Below are positions 51,170 to 64,000 of a DNA stretch of 64,000 bases, in pieces. The translations under genes and the position numbers were made by a program. Source of the stretch: Ignavibacteriota bacterium (GTDB taxonomy: Bacteria > Bacteroidota > Ignavibacteria > Tepidaquicellales > OLB5); contig CAVUOA010000009.1 of the NCBI GenBank assembly GCA_963742955.1, positions 754,596-818,595 on the forward strand, read 5' to 3'. How positions within the stretch are numbered: position 1 is the first letter of the stretch; every line of letters begins with the position of its first letter. The notes below the pieces were generated by a model that worked only from the letters and a program-made list of their open reading frames with translations, was not told where the DNA came from and made no database searches.

Positions 51170-51299
51170 CCTGTATTTTAACTTTCTTTTGTGTCATTGC
51201 GAGCGGAGCGAAGCAATCTCTGCTTAATAAACTTTACAAACTTTATGAACTTTATGAACTTTATGAACTATTTTACTTACACAAGATACTCTTTACTGC
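51170..51299 (+). repeat. Composite repeat module, left copy (DR-L)
   Basis: cctgtattttaactttcttttgtgtcattgcgag-cggag-cgaagcaatctc, then the 9-bp VNTR, then aactattttacttacacaagatactctttactgc. It is a direct repeat of 53111-53268. Confidence 0.8.
51230..51268 (+). repeat. 9-bp tandem repeat AACTTTAYR, about 4 units
   Basis: aactttaca, then aactttatg x3, then a partial unit. Confidence 0.85.
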
Positions 51300-51592
51300 T
51301 TCGGCATACAAGGTGAATGAGTACGGACCGGGTGGAGAGCGTGCTCTTATTAAAGTCTTTTGTCATTCACGCATAGGTTTCAAACATCGCTTTAGATAAC
51401 CTTCGCGGGAATTATAGTGAGAAGATTTGCTTTTCAATATTTACGCTAATTGCTTATATTAAGACTGATTATTTATAAACATCAGTAGGCTTAGGTTAGC
51501 GAAACAGGCTTCGGTACAGCACGCCATATGGTTCAGGTGCAGATACAGTAAATACCTTACTGCTTCCCGAGTTATCGGCAGAAAGGATATAT

Positions 51593-53027: not shown

Positions 53028-53096
53028 GCCTGCCTGTCTATCTATCTGCAATAGGCAGACAACAGGTAGACCTGCTGCAGGCAGGGAGTCGAAGGA
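53028..53096 (+). repeat. 69-bp inverted repeat, left arm (IR-a L)
   Basis: gcctgcctgtctatctatctgcaataggcagacaacaggtagacctgctgcaggcagggagtcgaagga. Its reverse complement occurs at 58791-58859 with one mismatch. Internally it can fold (cctgcctg/caggcagg, tctgc/gcaga, cagg/cctg). Confidence 0.9.
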
Positions 53097-53110: not shown

Positions 53111-53268
53111 CCTGTATTTTTAACTTTCTTTTGCGTCATTGCGAGTGCAGCGAAGCAATCTCAACTTAATAAACTTTACGAACTTTACGAACTTTACAAA
53201 CTTTATGAACTTTACGAACTTTACGAACTTTATAAACTATTTTACTTACCCAAGATACTCTTTACTGC
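53111..53268 (+). repeat. Composite repeat module, right copy (DR-R)
   Basis: Same architecture as 51170-51299, with the cattgcgag REP at 53135-53162 and a longer VNTR. Confidence 0.8.
53172..53238 (+). repeat. 9-bp tandem repeat AACTTTAYR, about 7 units
   Basis: aactttacg x2, aactttaca, aactttatg, aactttacg x2, aactttata, then a partial unit. Confidence 0.9.
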
Positions 53269-53294
53269 CATGCTATAAGAAGAAGAATTTTTGC

Positions 53295-53461: not shown

Positions 53462-56400
53462 ATGGCTTCACTTGAATCTGCCTACGAAAATGTATCAAAA
53501 CTTGTTGAGGATTTTAAAAACAACGAGCAATACTACATCACACCTAAATACTCAGAGGCACAGGTAAGAAAAGACTATCTCGATAAATTTTTTATTGCGC
53601 TCGGGTGGGACGTTAACCATGATGAACAAAAAGACCCTTACCGGCAGGAAGTAAAAGTAGAAAAAGCTGTTGCAGTTGAAAGTGCATCAAAGCGGGCGGA
53701 TTATGCATTTTACCTTTCACCAAATTTCAGAGAACCGGTTTTTTATGTTGAAGCCAAAAAACCCGCGCATGACCTTCTGAACCCATATTATTATTTTCAG
53801 GCAATCAGGTACGGATGGAATGCAAAACACCTGTGATTATTCTAACCGATTTTGAGGAATTTCATATTATCGATTCAAGATACAAGCCGAATATTAAAAC
53901 TGCCGTTGACAGAAAGCTCCAGCAATATCATTATACCGATTATCTTGATAAAGAGAAATTCGCAAAAATCTATTATTTGTTTTCGCGTGAATCAGTAGAA
54001 AGCAACAGCATTGGAAATTATGCCGATGCGCTTAAAAAAATCAGGGGTAAAGCAATTCGAAAAGGCGCGCTGGCGGGTATTTACAAAAGTATTGATGAAT
54101 CTTTCTTAGAAGAGCTTGATGAAATCAGAGACCACCTTGCAAAAGCGTTCAAAAAAAATCAAACCCCAATCTTGAAAGTGATGAACTTACCGAAGCAGTT
54201 CAAGTTACCATAGACAGACTTGTTTTTATAAGATTCCTTGAAGCAAAACTTATTGAAGGGGAATCTCATATAAGTCACGACGTCTCTAATCATAAGGCGG
54301 CTATTTAAGAAAAGGTACAGTATGGAAAGAATTTTATAACAGACAGCAGAGCGCTTGATGCAAAATATAATGGAATTGTTTTTAAACAGCACAATATAAT
54401 TGATACTGAAGGATTTAATGCACCGGATGACAAAGTTTTCGGTGATATATGCAAGGAACTTTCGCAGGAAGACTCGCCTTATGATTTCAATTTAATTCCA
54501 ATTCATATACTCGGCTCTATATATGAGCGTTTTCTAGGAAAAGTTGTACATGCAACTGATAAACATGTAAAGATTGAAGAAAAACCCGAAGTAAGAAAGG
54601 CAGGCGGAGTTTATTACACTCCGCAGTATATAGTAAAATATATTGTTGATAACACTATAGGTAAGCTGATTGAAGGCAAATCGCCGAAAGAAATTTCAAA
54701 GCTGCGCTTTGCCGATATTTCATGCGGAAGCGGCTCGTTCCTGATTACTGTTTTTGATACACTGTTGAGTACATTGGCAAATGGTATCAATCGCACCCTG
54801 ATACAGCTAAAAAAGACGGCGGCAGATTAAATAACGGGATGTGGGTTTTATCACTTCACCAAAAACGTGACATCCTGCTCAAAAAATATTTACGGTGTTG
54901 ATATAGACTACCAGGCGGTTGAGGTAACACAGCTTTCATTATTTTTAAAACTGCTTGAAGATGAAACACTTGCAACCGCGCAGGAAATGCAAACTTTATT
55001 TAAAGAAAGAATACTGCCTGATTTAAGCAAAAATATTGTTTGCGGCAACTCGCTTATTCGGAACAGATATTTCTTCCGGCTCTCTGTTTGATTCTGATGA
55101 AGAAAGAAAAATTAATGCAAGGGGAACTGAGGATAGGTTCCCCGCATATTTTTCACTCTTATAAAGGGGGCAAGAGAGATGACGGTTCCCCCTTATAAAG
55201 GGGGTCAGGGGGATGGAGCAAACCGAGGTTTTGATGCGATTATAGGAAATCAACCATATGTTAATATTTAGTATGTTGATAAAATTACAAAAGATTATTT
55301 GAAAGAAAAATATAACGTATATGCTGGGAAAGCAGACTTACTATATTTTTTCTTCGAGAAGGCATTAAAGATCTTAAAAAAAGATTCTTTTTTAGGTTTA
55401 ATTACTTCAAGATATTTTGTAGAAGCTACTGATGCAAAACCATTAAGAAAATATATAAAGAAAATGAAAATATTGTAGAATTTATAGATTTTAAAGATCA
55501 TAGTGTTTTCAAAGGTATCGGTATCCATTCAATAATATCAATTATAGAAAAAAATAAAATTAAATTGACAAAAATAAAACTAATAAAGTCAATTATTGAG
55601 CATCCTATTATAGATGAAAAGAATTTTGATATTTTTACGATTACTTTAAATAATGAAGATTGGACGTTTACAAACAAAGTTGAAAAAGTATTGTTTGAAA
55701 AATTAAATACAATATCTAACAGACTTGGAGACCTTGCAACAATAGAACAAGGACAGAAATCAGGTCTTAATCATGTTTTTGGTATTGACTATGAACTTGC
55801 AAATCGGTTGGAAAAAGAACCACTAAGAAAACTTATCAAAAATAGTCATATAAAAAGATATTACGCTAATTACAAAGATATGTATTTGATATATGCAGAT
55901 TCTAATTTTAACTTAGACGACTATCCTAAAATAAAAAATTACCTATTACAATTCAAAAAGGAGCTAATTGCACGTGCAGAAGCTAAAGACTATCTATATC
56001 CGTGGTATAGGTTACAAAGACCACGTGATAAAAAATTGTTTGATGCTAAAGAAAAAATTATCGTTCCATATAGAGCAGAATATAATAAATTTGCGTATGA
56101 TGACAAACAATACTTCAATGACGGGGGTGATATTAGAATAATAGTAATAAATAAGAATGAAGATTATGGAACAAAATTCTGTTTAGGTATCTTGAACTCC
56201 AGACTTAATGAACTTCTATTATCAGTTTATTGGTAGAAGAAAAGGTAAAATGTTAGAATATTTCGTCGAGCCTCTTGCAAAAATTCCAATTATTAAAATT
56301 AATTTTTCTAATCTTGCTCAAAAATCCCAGCACGATAAATTGGTATCACTAGTTGACCAGATGCTTGAGGCAAAGAAGAATCAAATGGAATCAACTACCG

Positions 56401-56522
56401 AGCGCGATAAATCATTTTGGGAAAACAAATGCAGCTCGCTTGATAAGCAAATAGACTCTCTGGTTTACGAGCTTTACGGTTTGACCGAAGAAGAAATAAA
56501 GATAGTGGAAAATAATAACTAA
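53462..56522 (+). pseudogene. Type IIG restriction-modification enzyme (Eco57I/PglX-like), heavily disrupted: N-terminal PD-(D/E)xK nuclease, gamma-class N6-adenine methyltransferase and TaqI-like C-terminal specificity domain
   Basis: Nuclease RADYAF...YVEAKKP and LTDFEEFHIID. MTase motifs AGGVYYTPQYIV (~54600), DISCGSGSFL (~54711), NIYGVDIDYQAVEV, CGNSLI and GFDAIIGNQPY (55227-55259). TRD LGDLATIEQGQKSGLNHVF and tail LVYELYGLTEEEIKIVE. About eight frame changes plus in-frame stops at 54306-54308 and 55269-55271. Confidence 0.85.
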
Positions 56523-56535
56523 AATAAAATACATC

Positions 56536-56871
56536 ATGGCAACAAGAATTTTACATTGCGGAAAAAATATTGAAAATTACAATATTTGTGTGGATGAAAA
56601 AGTTGCTGGGTTCACAGCGGGTGGTCCATCTACTGGTGATTTAATTTATCTGGTTGTAAGAGTTGGAAAAAAATCACTTTGTGGGGCAAGATTCACATTA
56701 AATGAAATTACTGATTATAAGCCTTGGCCAGACTCTGAAAATTACGTTCTGAGTTATACTATACAAAATATTGAATACTGTAAACCATTTGATATTTCAG
56801 TACTGGCTGGACCAGGTGGCCCATTGGGCGTTAAAATACTTGCAAGCAGCAAAAGAAATCAAAGAACATGA
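56536..56871 (+). CDS. EVE/PUA-like small beta-barrel domain protein (possibly the 5' part of a longer frameshifted gene)
   Basis: MATRILHCGKNIENYNICVDEKVAGF...GDLIYLVVRVGKKSLCGARFTLNEI...YVLSYTIQNIEY resembles archaeal/bacterial EVE domains by eye. The domain-like sequence continues in the +1 frame (WALKYLQAAKEIKEHDAVDLL). It starts 14 nt after the RM stop. Confidence 0.45.
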   Translation: MATRILHCGKNIENYNICVDEKVAGFTAGGPSTGDLIYLVVRVGKKSLCGARFTLNEITDYKPWPDSENYVLSYTIQNIEYCKPFDISVLAGPGGPLGVKILASSKRNQRT

Positions 56872-57041
56872 TGCAGTAGACTTACTAAACTCGCAATTCA
56901 ATTCAAATAAAGCAGATATATTTCTTTCCACATGCTGAATCTCCACAACCAGCAGCACCTGAAGAGAACATTTACGAAATTGAAAATGAAAAAGAATTTG
57001 CAAAAGCATTAAAAGAAGATCCTGACCTAAAAATCAACATA

Positions 57042-57776
57042 ATGGGGACTTTCCAGACAATAAATTTTACTAACGAAAATGATATTGTAAGAGGACTCGA
57101 AAAGCTTGTAAATGAAAATTTTTACATGTTATTTCAGCAATTTCCCGAAGATAAATCCATTTTGATACCTGATAACCGGAAGTTTTTTACTCGTCATGTA
57201 AAAAAAGACGAAACGTATGTTGCAGGTGTAAGTGGTATACCAGACGCTTTATTAATATTATTTAACAAAAGAGATCCCATACAAATCAATTTAATTGAAT
57301 ACGAGTGTTATGGTGAGAATAAAACCAGATCATCTGCAAAATCGGATTACTTAAATACGCATATTATACCGCAGCTAATGAGATTTGCGGCAACTTTCAG
57401 TATTATTACCGAGCAATTTACGCGAGACAACGCAATTAAAGACTGGATAAGCAAAATAATAAAATACATTAATGAAAATCCAGATCTTGAAAAGAAGTTC
57501 ACACAATGGGTAAAAGAAATCAATCCCCTTATTAGAGAAAAAGCTATTGATCTCGAAATAACAAAGTTGCTTGAATCGGCTTTCAAAAAAAATCTTCGTG
57601 TCATGCTAATCATTGATGAATTAACATCAGAGCAAAAATCAACTATCAGAAATGTAATAAATTCATTCAAGCTTGGAAACGAAAAAGGCGTTGATTTTGA
57701 AGGATATGTAATAAAACTTATTCAGAGTATAAGGATAAATGATAAAGAAGCTGAGTACGCTTTAACAGTACAATAA
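57042..57776 (+). CDS. Putative PD-(D/E)xK-like nuclease-fold protein, unknown family
   Basis: Candidate core ETYVAGVSGIPD68ALLILFNKRDPIQINLIE86YE88CYGENK94. The reading frame is open for 51 codons upstream of the first ATG (from 56889). Confidence 0.4.
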   Translation: MGTFQTINFTNENDIVRGLEKLVNENFYMLFQQFPEDKSILIPDNRKFFTRHVKKDETYVAGVSGIPDALLILFNKRDPIQINLIEYECYGENKTRSSAKSDYLNTHIIPQLMRFAATFSIITEQFTRDNAIKDWISKIIKYINENPDLEKKFTQWVKEINPLIREKAIDLEITKLLESAFKKNLRVMLIIDELTSEQKSTIRNVINSFKLGNEKGVDFEGYVIKLIQSIRINDKEAEYALTVQ

Positions 57777-57792
57777 TAAAAAATAATATTTT

Positions 57793-58398
57793 ATGATTTT
57801 TGCTTTATATAATTGTTTTCAGTATTATCTTGGTTTAGGTATGTACTCACCAAAAAAACTTCTTGCTCAAGGTGCAATGCTAGCATCACCACATCTTTTA
57901 AATAATCCAGACATGTTTCATACTGGAGATATATATCTACTTCATACTCGTTATTCTTTTTTAAGCTGGCTAGTCATGTATTATGAGCCATCACCTTGGT
58001 CACATACAGGTACAATTTCCCAGAATAAAAATTCCATTGATGCAACAACTTCGGGTGTAATTGAGCATCCAATATCAGATTATTTAGATAATAAATCTTA
58101 CATATTGATATATAGACCTAATGTTAATACAGAAAACTGTGAAAATTCAATAAACAAAATGCGTTCACAATTTCTTGGTATGCAATATGGTTGGAGAACG
58201 GTGTTTTACATATTTTTGGTAACCGTATATAACAAAAAAAGAAGTTACAGAATTAAATACACATTAGATTTTTTATTCATTATTTTTTTAATTAATTTAA
58301 TTTTCCAGAATAATACAATTTTTTGGATTAGTCTAATCTTTTCTGTTTTTAATATTCTAATAATTTTATGGAATGGGTTTAGGGGAAGATATAATTAG
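57793..58398 (+). CDS. Membrane-anchored YiiX-like (permuted papain/NlpC-P60, C92-type) protein
   Basis: GDIYLLHTRYSFLSWLV...PWSHTGTI...ATTSGVIEHPISDYL resembles the His-bearing half of YiiX-family proteins. No downstream CSE-type Cys motif is seen. The C-terminus consists of predicted TM helices and is extremely AT-rich. Confidence 0.4.
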   Translation: MIFALYNCFQYYLGLGMYSPKKLLAQGAMLASPHLLNNPDMFHTGDIYLLHTRYSFLSWLVMYYEPSPWSHTGTISQNKNSIDATTSGVIEHPISDYLDNKSYILIYRPNVNTENCENSINKMRSQFLGMQYGWRTVFYIFLVTVYNKKRSYRIKYTLDFLFIIFLINLIFQNNTIFWISLIFSVFNILIILWNGFRGRYN

Positions 58399-58540
58399 CC
58401 AATATCAGTTCTAAAGTCTTTTTATTTTTCAGTCCCAGCTGAGTCTATCGCAGCCTGTCTGCAAAAGGCAGAAGGACTCAGCGAAAACATACACACTTTG
58501 CCGCTTCGTGCCCTCTCTCCCGGTGTAAAAAAGATTTTCT

Positions 58541-58574
58541 GAGATTGCTTCGGTCGTTCCTCCCTCGCAATGAC
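58541..58574 (-). repeat. cattgcgag...cgaagcaatctc REP, inverted copy
   Basis: gagattgcttcggtcgttcctccctcgcaatgac is the rc of the motif found at 51193-51220 and 53135-53162. Confidence 0.6.
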
Positions 58575-58621
58575 AAATACCTTTTTTGTGTTTTTCCCTG
58601 TGCCCCTGCTGCTCTGTCGGA

Positions 58622-58700
58622 GCCTGTCCCGATATGCATCGGGGCTAAACATCGGGGCGGTTCCATTCGACGGAGTTTATCCCGATATACATCGGGGCTC
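58622..58700 (-). repeat. ccgat-hairpin repeats (IR-b R, two units)
   Basis: gcctgtcccgatatgcatcggggctaaacatcggggcgg, followed by ttatcccgatatacatcggggctc. Confidence 0.6.
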
Positions 58701-58790
58701 AGGATTTTACCTCTCTTTGAGACTGCCGCGCCGCGCATCCATCCCCCTCCGAAGGAGTCCTTTGGACTATCCCCCTTTAGTAAGGGGGAA

Positions 58791-58859
58791 TCCTTCGACT
58801 CCCTGCCTGCTGCAGGTCTACCTGTTGTCTGCCTATTGCAGATAGATAGACAGGCAGGC
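58791..58859 (-). repeat. 69-bp inverted repeat, right arm (IR-a R)
   Basis: Reverse complement of 53028-53096 with 68/69 identity (hand-checked). It is preceded by small hairpins ctcc-gaa-ggag, agtcc-ttt-ggact and ccccctt-tagt-aaggggg. Confidence 0.9.
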
Positions 58860-59611
58860 AATGACACACTTACTATATTTTTTTATACTGTTTTATCAGT
58901 ACCTTATGAAAATAATACTTGACTTTCGGGATTTTCCGTTTTAGATTTATGACCAGGATTATCAGGATTTATCTGATTAATCAGATTAATCAGATTTATC
59001 AAATTGATATTCGCGTTAATTCGTGAAATTCGTGTGAACGGTTCTTTAAAAAACATCAAAAACATGCAAAAAATCAAATGGCGGTATGAAACTGCAATTC
59101 CGGCTTAGAATCGTTATATTTTATTTAGTTACCCCCCTAATTCAGGGGTTTAAACATTTTAAAATCAACCGGTTGGAAAGCTCATAGGTAACTTAGTTAC
59201 CCCCCATACCATATAGTCAGATAGTAAAATGGGTAAACAGATAAATTGATAATTGGAATATAAAATGATTAGAAGATTAAATAATTGGAAGATATGATAA
59301 TGCGTGAATAAATGAAAAAAATATGCGGAATCAATAAAACCGGGTTAATCTGCGGTTCAGACAGTTTTGGAAAACCGCAATTTTGGGGCACTTTCATAAC
59401 TTGTTTTGAGAAAAAGTGCATTTAAAGGTCACTTTCATAACTTAACGTAACTTGAAGTTATGGGGGTGGGGTGTTAAAAACGGTCTGCCCCGGGGATAAA
59501 CTTAAAGAAACCAAAGAACTTTCCAAAAACATGACGTTTATCATTTTAAATACTTAAGAAAATCATTAATATTGTACTGTCCGTTAATCTTATTGAAGGA
59601 GTTACATAACG
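58860..59611. repeat. Gene-free repeat-dense tract
   Basis: ctgattaatcagattaatcagattt repeats at 58965-59000. ttagttacccccc occurs twice (~59125, ~59202). ataattgga occurs twice (~59249, ~59280). cactttcataactt occurs twice (59388, 59429). Hairpin cataactt-N11-aagttatg (59433-59461). No ORF of 60 aa or more. Confidence 0.5.
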
Positions 59612-60019
59612 ATGACATTCAAGGAATTATTAAAAACCAATCTTGATAAAATTTTATTTGACGCAACAGAATTTCTGTCGCGTTCAACACTCGAGCATTA
59701 TAACCAGATGAACGCCGAGCGTCTCCGCGCCAAGCTTGCGCGCCTCTACTACGTTGCCCGCGAGTGCGCCGAATCAGGCAGAATAGAACCGATGAAAAAA
59801 TACATCGGCGAAATTGCGCCTAACAGGTTCGATTCCGGTTTTGAGCTTTATGAAGTACAAACCGCAATTAACATACTTGAAGAATGCTTTTGGAAAAATA
59901 TAGTTGAAAAAGTTGACCCGGCAGAAAAAATGCCGGCTCTTGTAAAGACACAGGAAATTCTGTGCGCAGCAAAAAATACGCTGGCAAAATCATACCTTGA
60001 GTTGAAAAAAGAAGCTTGA
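59612..60019 (+). CDS. Hypothetical cytoplasmic alpha-helical protein
   Basis: 135-aa ORF with a GGAG RBS at 59598-59601. It has GC-richer, coding-like composition. No motif recognised. Confidence 0.55.
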   Translation: MTFKELLKTNLDKILFDATEFLSRSTLEHYNQMNAERLRAKLARLYYVARECAESGRIEPMKKYIGEIAPNRFDSGFELYEVQTAINILEECFWKNIVEKVDPAEKMPALVKTQEILCAAKNTLAKSYLELKKEA

Positions 60020-60097
60020 GACCTTCCATTGCCGGAGTTATGGGAGGCTGTTCCTTCTGCCCGTTCTCCGGCATCAAGCTTCAATATTATAAAAAAA

Positions 60098-60119
60098 GGC
60101 GGTGAGATAAATCGCCGCC
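60098..60119 (-). terminator. Rho-independent terminator of pckG (possibly bidirectional)
   Basis: ggcggtga-gataaa-tcgccgcc, with a T7 run after it on the minus strand. Confidence 0.75.
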
Positions 60120-60144
60120 CTTTGAAAATTAAGCTAAATCTGTT

Positions 60145-61926
60145 CTAATCTTTCGAAAACCTTTTCTCCTGCGCATCAAGCTCTGCAGTGAGTTCCTTCG
60201 GTAAGTGGTCGCCGAAAATTTTGTAGTATTCGCGCATCTCTTCAATTTCACGCAGCCCGTCTTCCTTGTTTACAGAAAAGAGCTTCTGCATCGTTTCACG
60301 TGTTACATCCAGCCCTGTAATGTCGAAGCCGTCAACATCGGGCAGCCTGCCGATTGGAGTTTCAACAAACTTGCCGGCGCCGTTAACACGTTCAAGAGCC
60401 CACTTCAGCGCGCGGATATTATCACCGTAACCCGGCCACATAAATTTACCGTTCTCATCTTTACGGAACCAATTCACATAGAAAATCTTCGGAAGCTTAT
60501 CGGGAGAAGATTTTTTGCCAATCTCAATCCAGTGTTTAAAATAATCTCCCATGTTGTATCCGCAGAAAGGCAGCATTGCAAACGGGTCATGGCGCAGCTT
60601 GCCGATAGTTCCTGCAGCAGCTGCGGTCATCTCCGATGATGAAGACGAACCCATATAGACGCCGTGGTTCCAGCTGTATGACTCGTTAACCAGCGGCACA
60701 ACAGAAGCTCTCCTCCCGCCGAAGAAGAACGCGGAAATCGGAACGCCTTTCGGGTCTTCCCATGCGGGGTCAATCACCGGGCACTGTGAAGCCGGCGCCG
60801 TAAACCTGGAATTGGGATGAGATGATACACGTCCTGCGTCGGGTGTCCAGTCTTTTTTGTTCCAGTCTGTTAAGTGGGCGGGTTTCTCGTCGGTCATTCC
60901 TTCCCACCAGACATCGCCGTCATCTGTATAAGCAACATTGGTAAAAATCGAGTTCTTTGTCATGGAAAGCATTGCATTGGCGTTGGTCTTCATCGAAGTG
61001 CCTGGCGCCACACCGAAGAATCCGTACTCGGGATTAATTGCGTGCAGTCTGCCGTCATCGCCGAACTTCATCCACGCAATATCATCGCCTACTGTTTCAA
61101 CTTTCCAGCCTGGAAGTGAAGGTGTAAGCATCGCGAGATTGGTTTTACCGCATGCAGATGGAAACGCCGCTGCAATATATTTCTTCTCGCCGCCCGGAGG
61201 TGTTAAACCGAGAATGAGCATGTGCTCAGCAAGCCATCCCTCATCACGGGCAAGAACAGATGCGATTCTCAGTGCGAAGCACTTCTTACCGAGCAGCGCA
61301 TTACCGCCGTAACCGCTTCCGTATGACCAGATGCTGCGCTCTTCGGGGAAATGAACAATATACTTTGTTGTGTTACACGGCCATGTTACATCCTTCTTCC
61401 CATCGGTTAACGGGTAGCCAACCGAATGCAGGCACGGAACAAATTCACCGTTGTCACCGAGTACATCAAGGACTTTCTTCCCCATGCGCGTCATGATGCG
61501 CATATTCAGCACAACATAAATTGAATCGGTAAGCTCTACACCAATGTGCGAAATCTTCGAGCCGAGCGGTCCCATGCTGTAGGGAATAACATACATTGTG
61601 CGTCCCTTCATAGAACCGGTAAAATGTTCTTTTAAAATTTTCTTCATCTCGACGGGGTCCATCCAGTTGTTTGTGGGACCGGCATCGATTTTATTTTTTG
61701 CGCAGATGAAAGTTCTGTCTTCAACTCTGGCTACGTCGTTCGGGTCTGAAACAACCCAGTAGCTGTTCGGTCTTTTTTTCAGCGGAACAAACTGTCCGCT
61801 CTTTACTGCCTGGCTGATGAGCCTTTGGTTTTCCTCATCCGAGCCGTCACACCAGTAAACAGAATCAGGCTGGCACATATCTGCCATTTCCTTAACCCAG
61901 TTGAGCAATTTTTGATTTTTTGTCAT
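60145..61926 (-). CDS. pckG: Phosphoenolpyruvate carboxykinase (GTP)
   Basis: 593 aa with [13 protein letters not shown] (P-loop), [13 protein letters not shown] and YFGVAPGTS, typical of GTP-PEPCK. Confidence 0.95.
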
Positions 61927-62151
61927 TTTTAAATCCTTCTGATATAATTTCTTGACTAAATACTAATCCAGCTAAATTTTAATCCAAATACAAACGGGAA
62001 AGCAAATAAATATTATTATTTTCCCGCAAACGAAAAATTACCAAAATATTAGCAAAGAAAAAAACCAAAAATGAAGATAAATGAAGCAATAACAGCAGAA
62101 ATGGATGCCTTCAATAAAAAAGACATCCATTTTTTATAGGAGGCAAAACTC

Positions 62152-62778
62152 TTACTTTACCAGCACCATTTTTTTTACGGCGCTGAAATTATCGGTTGAG
62201 AGTAAATAAAAATATACTCCGCTCGGAAATGCTGATGCGTCCCAATCGTAATTGTAACTGCCTGCATTGAGCTGTCTATCGATTAGCTCTGATGCAACTC
62301 TGCCCTGCACATCGTATATGATAAGCTTAACGTGCGTGTTCTCAGGCAAATCAAACCTGATGTTTGTTGTCGGGTTAAACGGGTTCGGGAAGTTCTGGCT
62401 TAATCCATACACTGCCGGAACTGCCGTTCCAACCGGCTTTATACCGTTGGGGCTTGCATTGATAGTACCGGTCATCCCAAATGACTGGTGCGGAATGCAA
62501 AAATAGTTATAAGTACCCGAATGCGTAATTACTAAAGAAAACGAAGTGTTTGCAGCATCAAGCGGGTTACTCCATGTAAGCGCCCCTCCGGGAATTATAC
62601 CCGATGTAGTTGTATGCGAACCGTCAACCCATACCCATTTTACCGTATCACCGACAACAACCGAAACCGATTGCGGTGAAAACGACATACCCGATGCAGT
62701 AACTGTCCATGTTGTTCCGTAAATTTGAGAAATTGAGAATAACAGGAAGAGGAATAAGAAGAATTTTGAATTTTTCAT
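62152..62778 (-). CDS. Plastocyanin-like cupredoxin with T9SS C-terminal sorting domain
   Basis: Signal peptide. Type-1 Cu ligand pattern GSH...YFCIPHQSFGM (H, C-x2-H-x4-M). C-terminal SQNFPNPFNPTTNIRFDL...GVYFYLL...KKMVLVK. Confidence 0.8.
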   Translation of the reverse strand: MKNSKFFLFLFLLFSISQIYGTTWTVTASGMSFSPQSVSVVVGDTVKWVWVDGSHTTTSGIIPGGALTWSNPLDAANTSFSLVITHSGTYNYFCIPHQSFGMTGTINASPNGIKPVGTAVPAVYGLSQNFPNPFNPTTNIRFDLPENTHVKLIIYDVQGRVASELIDRQLNAGSYNYDWDASAFPSGVYFYLLSTDNFSAVKKMVLVK

Positions 62779-62968
62779 TAAGGTCTCCTTTTATTGTGTT
62801 TTTTAAAAATTACGAGACCTTCACCCTTGAGAAATATACAACCTAATTAGTTTGTATGAGGTTCCTTAAGATAACATTTTTTCTAAAAGACTATTTTATC
62901 TTATTATATGATTGTAAAAGTATGGGATAACAGTTAAATTTGTGAAATTTATAAACTATAAAAATATC

Positions 62969-63859
62969 ATGGCTAACAAAATAACAGGAACAGGCACAGC
63001 ATTAATAACTCCTTTCAAGAAAAACGGCGCGGTGGATGAACATGCGCTAAGGGAACTTGTCGATTGGCAGATTAAAAACAAAGTTGAATTCCTCGTCCCC
63101 TGCGGTTCAACCGGTGAATCCGCTACTATGACACGCGGTGAACGGCGCGCTGTTATTGAAATGGTTTTGGACCAGGCTAACGGGAGAGTGCCGATTGTTG
63201 CAGGAACCGGCACTAACTCAACTACAGATTCAATACACATGACAAAAGATGCCAAACAGATTGGCGTTGATACCGTTTTGCTCGTGGGTCCGTATTACAA
63301 CAAGCCGACACAGGAAGGTTACTACCAGCACTTCAGAAAGATTGCGGAAGAGTGCGATGTGAAAGTTGTTCTGTATAACGTGCCGGGCAGAACTGGAAGC
63401 AATATACTGCCCGAAACAACACTGCGTCTTGCCGAAGAAGTGAAGAACGTAATCGCAGTAAAAGAAGCTTCAAATAACATAGAGCAGATTATGCAGATTA
63501 TTAAGCACAGACCAAAAGGGTTTGCGCTGCTCTCGGGTGAGGATTCATTTACATTGCCAATCATTGCTTCCGGCGGTGACGGTGTAATAAGCGTTGTCTC
63601 GAACGAAGTGCCGAAAGAGTTTAGTGACATGGTAAGATTTGCTTTAGCCGGCAATATGAAGAAAGCGCAGGAGATGCATTACAAGTTGTTCGGATTAATG
63701 AGAGCAAATTTTATTGAATCAAATCCAATCCCTGTTAAAGCGGCGCTTACCATGATGGGAAAAATCGAGGAGTATTACCGCCTGCCGTTAGTGAAAATGT
63801 CGAAAACAAACAGGGATAAGCTGAGGAAGATTTTGAAGGAATTGAAGCTGGTAAAATAG
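62969..63859 (+). CDS. dapA: 4-hydroxy-tetrahydrodipicolinate synthase
   Basis: GTALITPF, CGSTGESATMT, YNVPGRTG and IAVKEAS (Schiff-base Lys). The ATG at 62969 is preferred over the track's GTG at 62942. Confidence 0.95.
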   Translation: MANKITGTGTALITPFKKNGAVDEHALRELVDWQIKNKVEFLVPCGSTGESATMTRGERRAVIEMVLDQANGRVPIVAGTGTNSTTDSIHMTKDAKQIGVDTVLLVGPYYNKPTQEGYYQHFRKIAEECDVKVVLYNVPGRTGSNILPETTLRLAEEVKNVIAVKEASNNIEQIMQIIKHRPKGFALLSGEDSFTLPIIASGGDGVISVVSNEVPKEFSDMVRFALAGNMKKAQEMHYKLFGLMRANFIESNPIPVKAALTMMGKIEEYYRLPLVKMSKTNRDKLRKILKELKLVK

Positions 63860-64000
63860 TACGATTATAATCCCTTGCCTGCAGCAATTCTATTTGGCGA
63901 AAACAGGCAAGTACAAAAGGTGGAAATCTAGTCAGCTGGCTTGTACCCAGCACTTACCACAAAGCCATAAATGATAAATAAATATTTTTTTGATTGAATC

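Follow-up and report, generated by a model that had tools for sequence, protein, structure and literature searches.

A broken gene of an unannotated protein family in an Ignavibacteriota genome as a candidate modification-dependent nuclease

Modification-dependent nucleases are one of the principal defences against phages whose DNA is modified, and they also serve as reagents for mapping DNA modifications. In the MspJI family (MspJI, AspBHI, LpnPI), a solitary gene encodes a protein of ~400–450 aa in which an N-terminal SRA/PUA-like base-flipping reader precedes a C-terminal PD-(D/E)xK-type nuclease. The PD-(D/E)xK active site itself varies: BamHI, a type IIP enzyme that is methylation-sensitive and paired with its cognate methylase, carries Glu in place of Lys. 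The architecture class combining a reader with a PD-(D/E)xK domain has already been described (PMC7641849, PMC6765204). It includes the EVE-PD(D/E)XK class of Bell et al. 2020 (PMC7641849) and the modification-dependent endonucleases YenY4I, TspA15I/VcaM4I and ScoA3IV of Lutz et al. 2019 (PMC6765204), in which an EVE/PUA reader is joined to PD-(D/E)xK or HNH; a structure of VcaM4I is available (PMC7897488). In type IV systems, EVE-superfamily domains at the N-terminus of McrB are likewise known to provide specificity (PMC7641849, PMC11090510), and a census of the N-terminal domains of McrBC has been compiled (PMC11090510). According to a citation in PMC11037411, the YTH-like domain of Thermococcus gammatolerans McrB binds m6A DNA.

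Here we describe a locus at positions 56536–57776 of the window, i.e., of the whole 64,000-nucleotide stretch of Ignavibacteriota DNA that was analysed. On balance, we favour its interpretation as a recently inactivated, solitary, single-polypeptide type IV-like (modification-dependent) nuclease gene of an unannotated family. Like the EVE/PUA-reader nuclease fusions, the family lacks a cognate methyltransferase and occurs sporadically, consistent with horizontal transfer; unlike them, its sequence matches neither the EVE, YTH and ASCH models of Pfam nor any annotated nuclease family. The predicted order of its parts is that of the MspJI family, with which it shares no detectable sequence similarity, and MspJI-family structures were not among the top Foldseek matches of either model. 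An earlier note on this DNA had suggested an undescribed type IV-like gene; the family is indeed new and unannotated, whereas the kind of enzyme, a reader plus PD-(D/E)xK, had already been described.

One gene across three reading frames

When read through three frames, the locus encodes one protein of ~414 aa, composed of the following parts:

56536–56823, + strand: pseudogene segment 1, frame A; residues 1–96, the beta-barrel part of the predicted PUA-like reader, ending ...AGPGGP
56824, + strand: frameshift 1; a single extra base after the GGP codons and before the codon of the invariant Trp
56825–56923, + strand: pseudogene segment 2, frame B; encodes WALKYLQAAKEIKEHDAVDLLNSQFNSNKADIF, the final two predicted reader helices, W-ALKYLQAAKEIKEHDAVDLLNSQF...
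56915–56930, + strand: frameshift 2; a +1 shift in T-runs (ATATTTCTTTCC)
56928–57038, + strand: pseudogene segment 3a, frame C; acidic variable linker and a short helix (EKEFAKALKEDP)
57039–57776, + strand: pseudogene segment 3b, frame C; C-terminal domain, probably a divergent PD-(D/E)xK nuclease, and stop codon

Alignment to homologues revealed that segment 1 keeps the conserved H-C, N-Y, C, G-F, G-D, C-G-A-R, P-W and C-x-P-F positions. Homologues read GG-x-x-W, with two residues before the Trp, where the window reads GGP/T/W at 56824, so the first frameshift amounts to a net change of −2 (or +1). Segment 2 corresponds to helices 88–107 and 113–125 in the AF2 model of the homologue P0001, and the stop codon of frame B lies at 56936–56938. 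The exact base of the second frameshift cannot be fixed because the start of the linker is poorly conserved. Frame C is open far 5′ of 57042, and 56928–57773 codes for the linker, a low-confidence part of the P0001 model (pLDDT <50 at residues 138–152), and the C-terminal domain. The surviving ORF at 57042–57776 (244 aa) comprises the C-terminal domain only.

The repaired 414-aa sequence was matched at 100% coverage by more than 500 intact cluster representatives of 405–430 aa, the best at 64% identity, and the alignment to intact homologues runs without gaps at both breaks. Judged from the sequences, this end-to-end agreement lies far beyond chance. The single protein of ~410 aa over three tiling frames proposed in the earlier note is thereby borne out: the homologues are fused and full-length, and its two predicted breaks, at ~56815–56825 and ~56915–56935, enclose those located here. 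Three other readings of the locus were considered. The 111-aa ORF was rejected as a stand-alone functional protein, as it lacks the final two reader helices; the 244-aa ORF could be a free nuclease domain, and nothing here supports this; programmed frameshifting or phase variation was rejected because a long repeat tract is absent and the shifts differ in the copy of a relative (contig L010).

Neither the repaired protein nor its parts had a meaningful match in Pfam, PADLOC, NCBIfam or PHROGs, the intact relatives (>500, 405–430 aa) have no Pfam, NCBIfam, PADLOC or PHROG assignment, and a profile search of PDB sequences returned one spurious match (E 0.9); the family is thus as undescribed as had been supposed. 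The family comprises several hundred sequence clusters; the gene was detected in 87 of 185,579 species representatives (~0.05%), and its carriers are scattered across Bacteroidota, Ignavibacteria, Cyanobacteria, Bacillota, Treponema and Planctomycetes. A tblastn search of 50,697 phage genomes with a Paenibacillus homologue gave no match, and in the plasmid collection two C. botulinum plasmids were matched. The C. botulinum plasmid copy adjoins nucleotide-metabolism genes, and some other copies lie amid housekeeping genes.

Comparison of the window copy with its divergent allele in L010, which occupies the same locus, gave a dN/dS of 0.09 (0.11 in the N-domain, 0.06 in the C-domain; dS saturated), which indicates past purifying selection on the gene. 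The window copy retains 47 of 47 family-invariant and 83 of 89 near-invariant residues. With all 47 invariant residues kept, the gene was inactivated recently, unless the breaks arose in assembly. The surroundings of the gene are as follows:

53028–53096, no strand: left arm of an inverted repeat; 69 nt, 99% complementary
53462–56522, + strand: upstream neighbour, a type IIG restriction-modification gene with an HSDR_N nuclease, an Eco57I methylase and a TaqI_C specificity domain
58791–58859, no strand: right arm of the inverted repeat; 69 nt, pairs with 53028–53096

The repeat arms flank a 5.8-kb low-GC island that contains both decaying genes, and homology to the L010 backbone (95.5% identity) restarts at 58858. 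The upstream ORF ends at 56522 and the gene starts 14 nt later, at 56536; the spacing from a dead methyltransferase gene given in the earlier note is thus correct, and the upstream gene is in fact a whole type IIG restriction-modification fusion. It is heavily degraded, with at least three frame changes, in-frame stops at ~54306, ~54828 and ~55263, and an insert of ~100 bp at 55121–55215. As the stops and the insert are inexplicable by indel errors, this decay is real. The L010 copy of the locus is also broken, at different positions, and the broken copies in the window and in L010 both adjoin adenine-methylase genes. A C5-methylase/Vsr pair lies a few kb away in L010; the equivalent position falls past the end of the window at 64000. 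Within the island, a scan found promoters and terminators to be as numerous as expected by chance.

Could the gene be intact in the organism, with both breaks introduced during assembly or base calling of a metagenome-assembled genome, as indels at short homopolymers or GGCC-type sites? We consider this unlikely. Complete retention of the invariant residues and the lack of in-frame stops in the three frames used speak for such errors, and both breaks are small indels, one of them inside T-runs. One L010 break also lies only ~10 nt from the first break of the window, which could mark a systematic error context, and L010 and other related records carry contig names in the style of long-read assemblers. 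However, the nonsense codons and the inserted element of the adjacent type IIG gene are not indel artefacts, the remaining ~55 kb of the window are densely filled with 46 long intact ORFs, similarly low-GC regions included, and the L010 shifts differ from those of the window in size and number. Judged from its sequence, the locus is best described as a pseudogene in an otherwise decaying region, in agreement with the decay suspected earlier.

The N-terminal reader and the C-terminal domain

AF2 was used to model P0001 (pLDDT 85 overall, ~90 in the N-domain), and the model was compared with the PDB by Foldseek. The N-terminal ~125 residues displayed a PUA/EVE-superfamily fold, matching YTH (4u8t, Mmi1, YTHDF2), ASCH (5guq) and EVE (2eve, 2ar1, 3eop) structures about equally, with probability 1.0, E-values of 4e-3 to 6e-2 and target-normalised TM-scores of 0.5–0.63. 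At the level of sequence, the repaired protein matched none of Pfam EVE PF01878, YTH PF04146 and ASCH PF04266 at E<=1, and the three models were absent from the 25 commonest families of 115 members at E<=5. The model thus places the reader among the PUA-like pseudo-barrels at fold level; the EVE-type barrel of the earlier note is supported as a PUA-superfamily fold, not at the level of the EVE family. Five aromatic residues (Y16, F27, Y39, W65 and F86) are conserved in every architecture in which the domain occurs, and W99 in most, making them candidates for the lining of a modified-base pocket. The reader also has four conserved Cys and one His (H8, C9, C19, C50, C83), a feature that sets it apart from the EVE/PUA-reader nuclease fusions.

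In a profile search, this N-domain also turned up in fusions with McrB-like AAA_5 GTPases, AAA_21/AAA_15 ATPases and OST-HTH, as well as in stand-alone form. The N-domains of the McrB-like proteins matched the family profile with E-values down to 1e-49, and in both of the McrB fusions looked up an overlapping McrC gene (DUF2357 + PDDEXK_7) follows directly. By analogy with known systems, the N-terminus of McrB is the position of the type IV target-recognition module. The very same domain family is therefore found on McrB-like GTPases followed by McrC and in the window protein, which, unlike McrBC, has no GTPase or McrC partner and carries the predicted nuclease directly fused to the reader; AAA_5 was absent from the window protein and from the full-length family in Pfam scans.

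The C-domain was modelled with a pLDDT of 85. In P0001 numbering, the elements follow the order helix (E190), strand, strand (PD238), strand (ExE), helix (K272, Q283), three-helix insert and strand (D364), and E190, PD238, ExE, K272, Q283 and D364 are all invariant in the family alignment. The positions of the putative active site in the window are as follows:

57099–57101, + strand: invariant Glu codon; E20 of the 244-aa ORF, E190 in P0001; first core helix, G-L-E motif
57240–57245, + strand: invariant P67-D68 codons; P237-D238 in P0001; just before core strand 2, candidate metal-binding Asp
57297–57305, + strand: invariant E86-Y87-E88 codons; E258-Y-E260 in P0001; end of core strand 3, in place of (D/E)-x-K
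57339–57341, + strand: invariant Lys codon; K100, K272 in P0001; where the long helix that follows strand 3 begins, candidate relocated catalytic Lys

This predicted order is compatible with the alpha-beta-beta-beta-alpha-beta core of the PD-(D/E)xK fold. Foldseek found no significant structural match for the C-domain in the PDB (best E 0.19) or in BFVD (best E 0.012), and no sequence profile tied it to a nuclease family in Pfam scans or in the profile search of PDB sequences. The weak PDB matches include the BspD6I small subunit, Bse634I, MspI, Exo5 and Card1, and the named weak matches in BFVD are nearly all PD-(D/E)xK proteins (VRR-NUC, UL24, YqaJ, ExoVIII-like, DUF2726). Because the strand and helix order, the invariant E...PD...ExE...K pattern and the predominance of PD-(D/E)xK proteins among the weak matches coincide, the C-domain is probably a divergent restriction-endonuclease (PD-(D/E)xK) fold. 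The PD-(D/E)xK core of the earlier note is thus partly supported, by topology, conserved motifs and structural matches that are individually non-significant, and its details change. E58 sits in a low-confidence, non-conserved loop, and E12 and E20 are the upstream acidic residues that are conserved; K94 (K266 in P0001) is ~90% conserved and precedes the invariant K100.

The motif of the C-domain is D...E-x-E, with Glu where the canonical (D/E)-x-K has Lys. Together with the downstream Lys and the three-helix insert that interrupts the core, this putative active site distinguishes the family from the known EVE/PUA-reader nuclease fusions. In BamHI, as in the window family, an Asp is followed ~20 residues on, in the next strand, by E-x-E; the two share no sequence or significant structural similarity. 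Within the insert, the uncharacterised DUF7669 was weakly matched by 46 of the 115 members, the sole recurrent match when all of them were scanned, and a literature search found no mention of it.

These features also frame a reading of which we are doubtful, namely that the C-domain is a DNA- or RNA-binding, regulatory or toxic effector other than an endonuclease, or that modified RNA is the target. YTH and ASCH domains frequently read RNA, and the structures that match the N-domain best are YTH readers of m6A in RNA together with an ASCH ribonuclease. The non-significant nuclease matches, the Glu in place of Lys, the weak DUF7669 similarity and the placement of some copies amid housekeeping or nucleotide-metabolism genes would also fit such a role. 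Nevertheless, the invariant acidic and Lys residues fall exactly on the canonical PD-(D/E)xK secondary-structure elements, PD-(D/E)xK proteins dominate the weak structural matches in two independent libraries, D...E-x-E active sites have a precedent in BamHI, and DNA-cutting McrBC systems use the same reader.

Gene neighbourhoods across the family

To search for partner genes, a Pfam census and all-against-all BLAST were applied to up to three neighbours per side at 80 loci. No neighbour gene was conserved across 69 loci: the largest shared neighbour cluster comprised 5 loci, and the 69 upstream neighbours fell into 83 Pfam families, the 69 downstream ones into 75. At most ~10–13 of the upstream neighbours carried a DNA methylase domain, which belonged to three unrelated classes, as did a few downstream neighbours, likewise of unrelated classes, and a restriction-modification or methylase protein was immediately adjacent in roughly 15–20% of loci. 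McrC (a neighbour in 1 of 69 loci), GmrSD, ToxN, PemK, integrases and group II introns were also found near some copies, and clearly solitary copies exist among the loci examined. A methyltransferase is thus no obligate partner of the family, and the census supports a reader-plus-effector architecture without a cognate methyltransferase.

Accordingly, a conventional type II restriction endonuclease whose cognate methyltransferase is the gene just upstream is very improbable and was rejected: the gene does start a few nt past a co-directional gene for an Eco57I-type methylase in the window and L010, and in prophage-like regions of Paenibacillus, Fontibacillus and Alkalihalobacillus an N6_N4 methylase (229–261 aa) lies 50–100 bp upstream, but most loci have no methylase neighbour, several of the methylases come with a nuclease of their own, as parts of complete type I, type ISP or type IIG systems, and the N-domain has the modified-base-reader fold common to McrB.

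Proposed mode of action and implications

Returning to the favoured interpretation, a modification-dependent nuclease, we hypothesize that the PUA/EVE barrel of the N-terminal ~125 residues would flip a modified base out of the incoming DNA and probe it within a pocket of conserved aromatic residues. An acidic flexible linker would connect this reader to the C-terminal domain, whose divergent PD-(D/E)xK core (E190, P-D238, E258-x-E260 and K272 in P0001) may cut DNA near the recognised site, without the GTP-driven translocation of McrBC. A methyltransferase would be unnecessary, as the host would simply be without the targeted modification.

More tentatively, the YTH/ASCH-like, Cys-rich reader might sense a mark other than 5mC or 5hmC, such as N6-methyladenine, N4-methylcytosine or a phage hypermodified base, although we hold this to be improbable. 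To our knowledge, few compact readers of these three kinds of mark have been reported. An adenine methyltransferase gene lies directly upstream on the same strand in ~10–13 of 69 loci and in the window, which would be awkward for an m6A-dependent enzyme. If such a reader were nevertheless confirmed, it would add a new specificity to those known in defence and might serve as a tool for epigenomic mapping, and the repeated pseudogenisation, here and in L010, could reflect a clash with host methylation.

For the source genome, the consequences are modest: the sequence points to a small decaying defence island in which both defence genes are apparently dead. For the family, the lack of any domain annotation means that defence-system finders currently overlook it, and the reader, common to McrBC and ABC-type ATPase fusions, would constitute a specificity module that has so far carried no label and could find a place in domain libraries.

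Three frames of one broken gene

The earlier note had read 56536-57776 as one protein of about 410 aa running across three frames. This reading is correct, far beyond chance: ORF listing and three-frame translation show that the pieces tile gap-free, homologues are full-length, and a multiple alignment with them crosses both breaks without interruption.

56536-56871, + strand: first piece (ORF)
ending at 56936-56938, + strand: second piece, a +1-frame stretch (three-frame translation)
57042-57776, + strand: third piece (ORF), its frame already open upstream of the ATG
56536-56823, 56825-56923 and 56928-57773, + strand: usable segments from peptide-to-DNA mapping

The first break is a single stray base at 56824, where the window has GGC CCA T TGG and intact homologues have GG-x-x-W; the second is a +1 shift at about 56915-56930, within the T-rich run ATATTTCTTTCC. 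At this GG-x-x-W site, give or take about 10 nt, both the window and L010, a contig of a close relative (ENA ERZ25039495 contig_37189), have one frameshift. The repaired 414-aa sequence was matched by 502 cluster representatives at E ≤ 1e-3. Among the best 120 of these, nearly all are intact fused homologues of 405-430 aa with 100% query coverage, as the earlier note had proposed to look for; the top match among the 120 listed is a 416-aa protein from an Ignavibacteria MAG (64% identity).

Reader and C-terminal domain

Pfam, NCBIfam, PADLOC and PHROG models gave no match to the N-terminal domain. The closest intact homologue was modelled with AlphaFold2 from a 115-sequence alignment (mean pLDDT 85, pTM 0.77), and Foldseek matches of this model in the PDB were confined to the N-terminal domain. 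They comprise YTH (MRB1 4u8t, Mmi1, YTHDF1-3, YTHDC1), ASCH (5guq) and EVE (2eve, 2ar1, 3eop) structures, with E from 4e-3, probability 1.0 and target-normalised TM of 0.5-0.63. On these matches the modelled domain is a PUA/EVE-superfamily fold, the outcome anticipated for this part of the protein; the narrower label of an 'EVE-type' barrel did not hold, EVE being inseparable here from YTH or ASCH.

When 1.84 billion representatives were searched exhaustively with a profile, just 176 proteins matched at E ≤ 1e-3. Among them, besides occurring as stand-alone proteins of about 133 aa, the domain is fused to McrB-like AAA_5 GTPases (P0162, P0196, P0220 and, judged by McrB-like motifs in its sequence, P0229), to AAA_21/AAA_15 ABC-type ATPases (P0201, P0204) and to an OST-HTH protein (P0190). 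The ATPase partners in P0201 and P0204 are AAA_21/AAA_15/AAA_23, OLD/AbiEii-like. In both of the McrB fusions looked up, an McrC gene (DUF2357 + PDDEXK_7) comes next and overlaps the fusion gene.

L091, 1864-6013: McrB-McrC locus with the same reader; McrC unusually long (818 aa)
L092, 252-4278: McrB-McrC locus with the same reader; McrC unusually long (825 aa)

The McrB N-terminus is the target-recognition module of McrBC, where EVE-superfamily domains are the commonest (PMC7641849, PMC11090510), and a YTH-like domain at the McrB N-terminus binds m6A DNA according to work cited in PMC11037411. Use of the same domain at the McrB N-terminus, with McrC next to it, provides the strongest evidence that the window's domain acts as a modified-base reader in restriction. 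Residues H8, C9, N15, Y16, C19, G26, F27, G35, D36, Y39, C50, G51, R53, P64, W65, C83 and F86 (numbering of P0001, an intact homologue) are conserved in all architectures. The four cysteines and one histidine at positions 8, 9, 19, 50 and 83 are unusual for the PUA/EVE superfamily, not being typical of EVE, YTH or ASCH, and could bind a structural metal or respond to redox conditions.

The window's own 244-aa ORF, modelled separately, reached pLDDT 85 and pTM 0.83. The C-terminal domain has no significant structural neighbour in the PDB (best E 0.19) or BFVD (best E 0.012). Despite this lack of significance, the named weak matches of the model point one way: BspD6I small subunit, Bse634I, MspI, Exo5 and Card1 in the PDB, and VRR-NUC (n=3), herpesvirus UL24 (about 10), a YqaJ-like recombinase, an ExoVIII PDDEXK-like protein, DUF2726 and 'PD-(D/E)XK nuclease superfamily' in BFVD. 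The predicted order of elements, from model and alignment, fits the canonical alpha-beta-beta-beta-alpha-beta core with an insertion.

Elements 1-2: helix with invariant G-L-E190; strand
Element 3: strand, invariant P-D238 just before it
Element 4: strand with invariant E258-Y-E260 at its end
Element 5: long helix with invariant K272, N277 and P-Q283
Elements 6-7: three-helix insert; strand, then invariant D364

The motif is D...E-x-E, not E-x-K; in BamHI, Glu is known at the Lys position. We retain the proposed PD-(D/E)xK nuclease core as a likely fold, given the element order and the invariant P-D238 and E258-Y-E260, with the E-x-E variant and without E58, which lies in a disordered, non-conserved loop. 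Pfam DUF7669, on which no literature was found, was weakly matched by 46 of 115 family members (best E 6e-4) over the helical insert (about residues 320-350 of P0001).

The MspJI family has the same order of parts. More generally, an EVE/PUA-superfamily reader with a PD-(D/E)xK or HNH nuclease is an established architecture class (PMC7641849; PMC6765204; PMC7897488). No relationship at sequence level could be detected between the window family and any of these, from which it also differs in its Cys-rich reader, its E-x-E motif and the helical insertion that interrupts the core. It is best regarded as a new family that lacks annotation and falls within a known architecture class.

Distribution and putative mechanism

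Across 185,579 species, each represented by one genome, the gene is present in 87, scattered over Bacteroidota, Ignavibacteria, Cyanobacteria, Bacillota, Treponema, Planctomycetes and Desulfobacterota; it was found in none of 50,697 sequenced phages. Immediate upstream genes (n=69) represent 83 Pfam families and downstream genes (n=69) 75, the largest neighbour BLAST cluster (up to three genes per side) covers five loci, and this census of Pfam families and BLAST clusters revealed no conserved partner gene. A DNA-methylase or restriction-modification protein lies immediately upstream in roughly 10-13 of the 69 loci (mad2/Eco57I-like, 7; type I, 3; type II N6_N4, 3), several being parts of complete type I, type ISP or type IIG systems. 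The neighbourhoods further contain McrC, GmrSD_N, ToxN, PrlF, PemK, PIN, Uma2, integrase, group II introns and transposases, as well as ordinary housekeeping genes. In Paenibacillus and Fontibacillus the gene occupies prophage-like regions, directly after an N6_N4 methylase, and on two Clostridium botulinum plasmids of about 200 kb it lies beside the botR/neurotoxin cluster.

L093, C. botulinum plasmid NZ_CP063966.1, 86855-88171: intact family member, flanked by anaerobic ribonucleotide reductase/dUTPase genes on one side and the botR-HA-NTNH cluster on the other

The pattern is that of a gene that is self-contained, moves horizontally and is loosely tied to defence and mobile DNA. Given the lack of a conserved partner among the 69 loci, it does not fit a type II restriction-modification pair.

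The earlier interpretation as a type IV-like nuclease is largely right in that a solitary gene under purifying selection encodes a two-domain protein with a PUA-like reader, a module common to McrBC; nuclease activity and modification dependence are what we infer. The reader would flip and check a modified base, and the fused PD-(D/E)xK-like domain would then cleave DNA nearby. Double-strand cuts would probably need homo-oligomerisation, to which the invariant tail EYALTVQ at the C-terminus may contribute, and the host would be spared because it lacks the modification. Given the YTH/ASCH-like fold of the model, the modification sensed may be m6A or 4mC as well as 5mC/5hmC, though a general m6A reader would be constrained by how often adenine methylases lie next to the gene.

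Probable inactivation within a variable island

The locus is a variable island with a GC content of 29-33%, against about 38-40% in its surroundings.

53028-53096 and 58791-58859: 69-nt inverted repeat, 99% complementary, bracketing the 5.8-kb low-GC island
53462-56522, + strand: type IIG restriction-modification fusion (HSDR_N nuclease + Eco57I methylase + TaqI_C), directly upstream of the gene under study
55121-55215: inserted element of about 100 bp in the methylase gene, with the GNSLI motif on one side and FDAIIGNQPY on the other
57793-58398: YiiX-like Peptidase_C92 ORF, downstream cargo gene
about 51214-51300 and about 53165-53260: 9-nt tandem runs (CTTTAYRAA)n near the repeat arms
about 58960-59010: similar 9-nt run

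Compared with L010 over window positions 53566-63858, the island copy is 65-77% identical and the flanks 95.5%, with homology to the L010 backbone picking up again exactly at 58858. Gene order is the same, and the downstream cargo differs, L010 having a DUF5677 gene in place of the Peptidase_C92 ORF. Beside each inverted-repeat arm there are additional repeat modules in common (51176-51300 versus 53118-53270), among them 'GTCATTGCGAG...GAAGCAATCTC' and the 9-nt runs; these look like genome-wide small repeat elements marking a recombination or insertion hotspot.

In the window the gene under study is a pseudogene that keeps all 47 family invariants and 83 of 89 near-invariants, its damage consisting of two indels only. 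Assembly error is an unlikely source of these frame breaks, and three observations argue that they are biological. The remainder of the window holds 46 long, tightly packed, intact ORFs, and an ORF survey saw no other fragmented region there. In the type IIG gene the reading frame changes at least three times, stop codons lie in frame near 54306, 54828 and 55263, the NPPY motif reads NQPY, and the insert is present; indel errors are unable to produce these stops and the insert. In L010 the type IIG gene and the family gene are broken too, at different positions and by different amounts, so that both defence genes are broken in both genomes. The type IIG gene, which the earlier note had taken for a dead methyltransferase gene alone, is dead several times over. 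The insert contains a hairpin rich in GC (GGGGAACT...GGTTCCCC) and carries CTTATAAAGGGGG twice in direct orientation; it has no second copy within the window and probably represents a miniature mobile or repeat element.

The window and L010 gene copies share 77% DNA identity, against 95.5% for the flanking chromosome; their synonymous divergence is saturated (dS about 1.8), and dN/dS is 0.09 overall (0.11 in the N-terminal and 0.06 in the C-terminal domain). They are thus old, divergent alleles, each shaped by strong purifying selection and inactivated recently.

L010, 10251-11664: Vsr endonuclease + C5 cytosine methylase genes, a few kb downstream of the island; the equivalent position lies beyond the window's right end (64000)

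As pure speculation, cytosine methylation by the host, if it occurs, could have turned a 5mC-sensing type IV enzyme harmful and favoured its loss.
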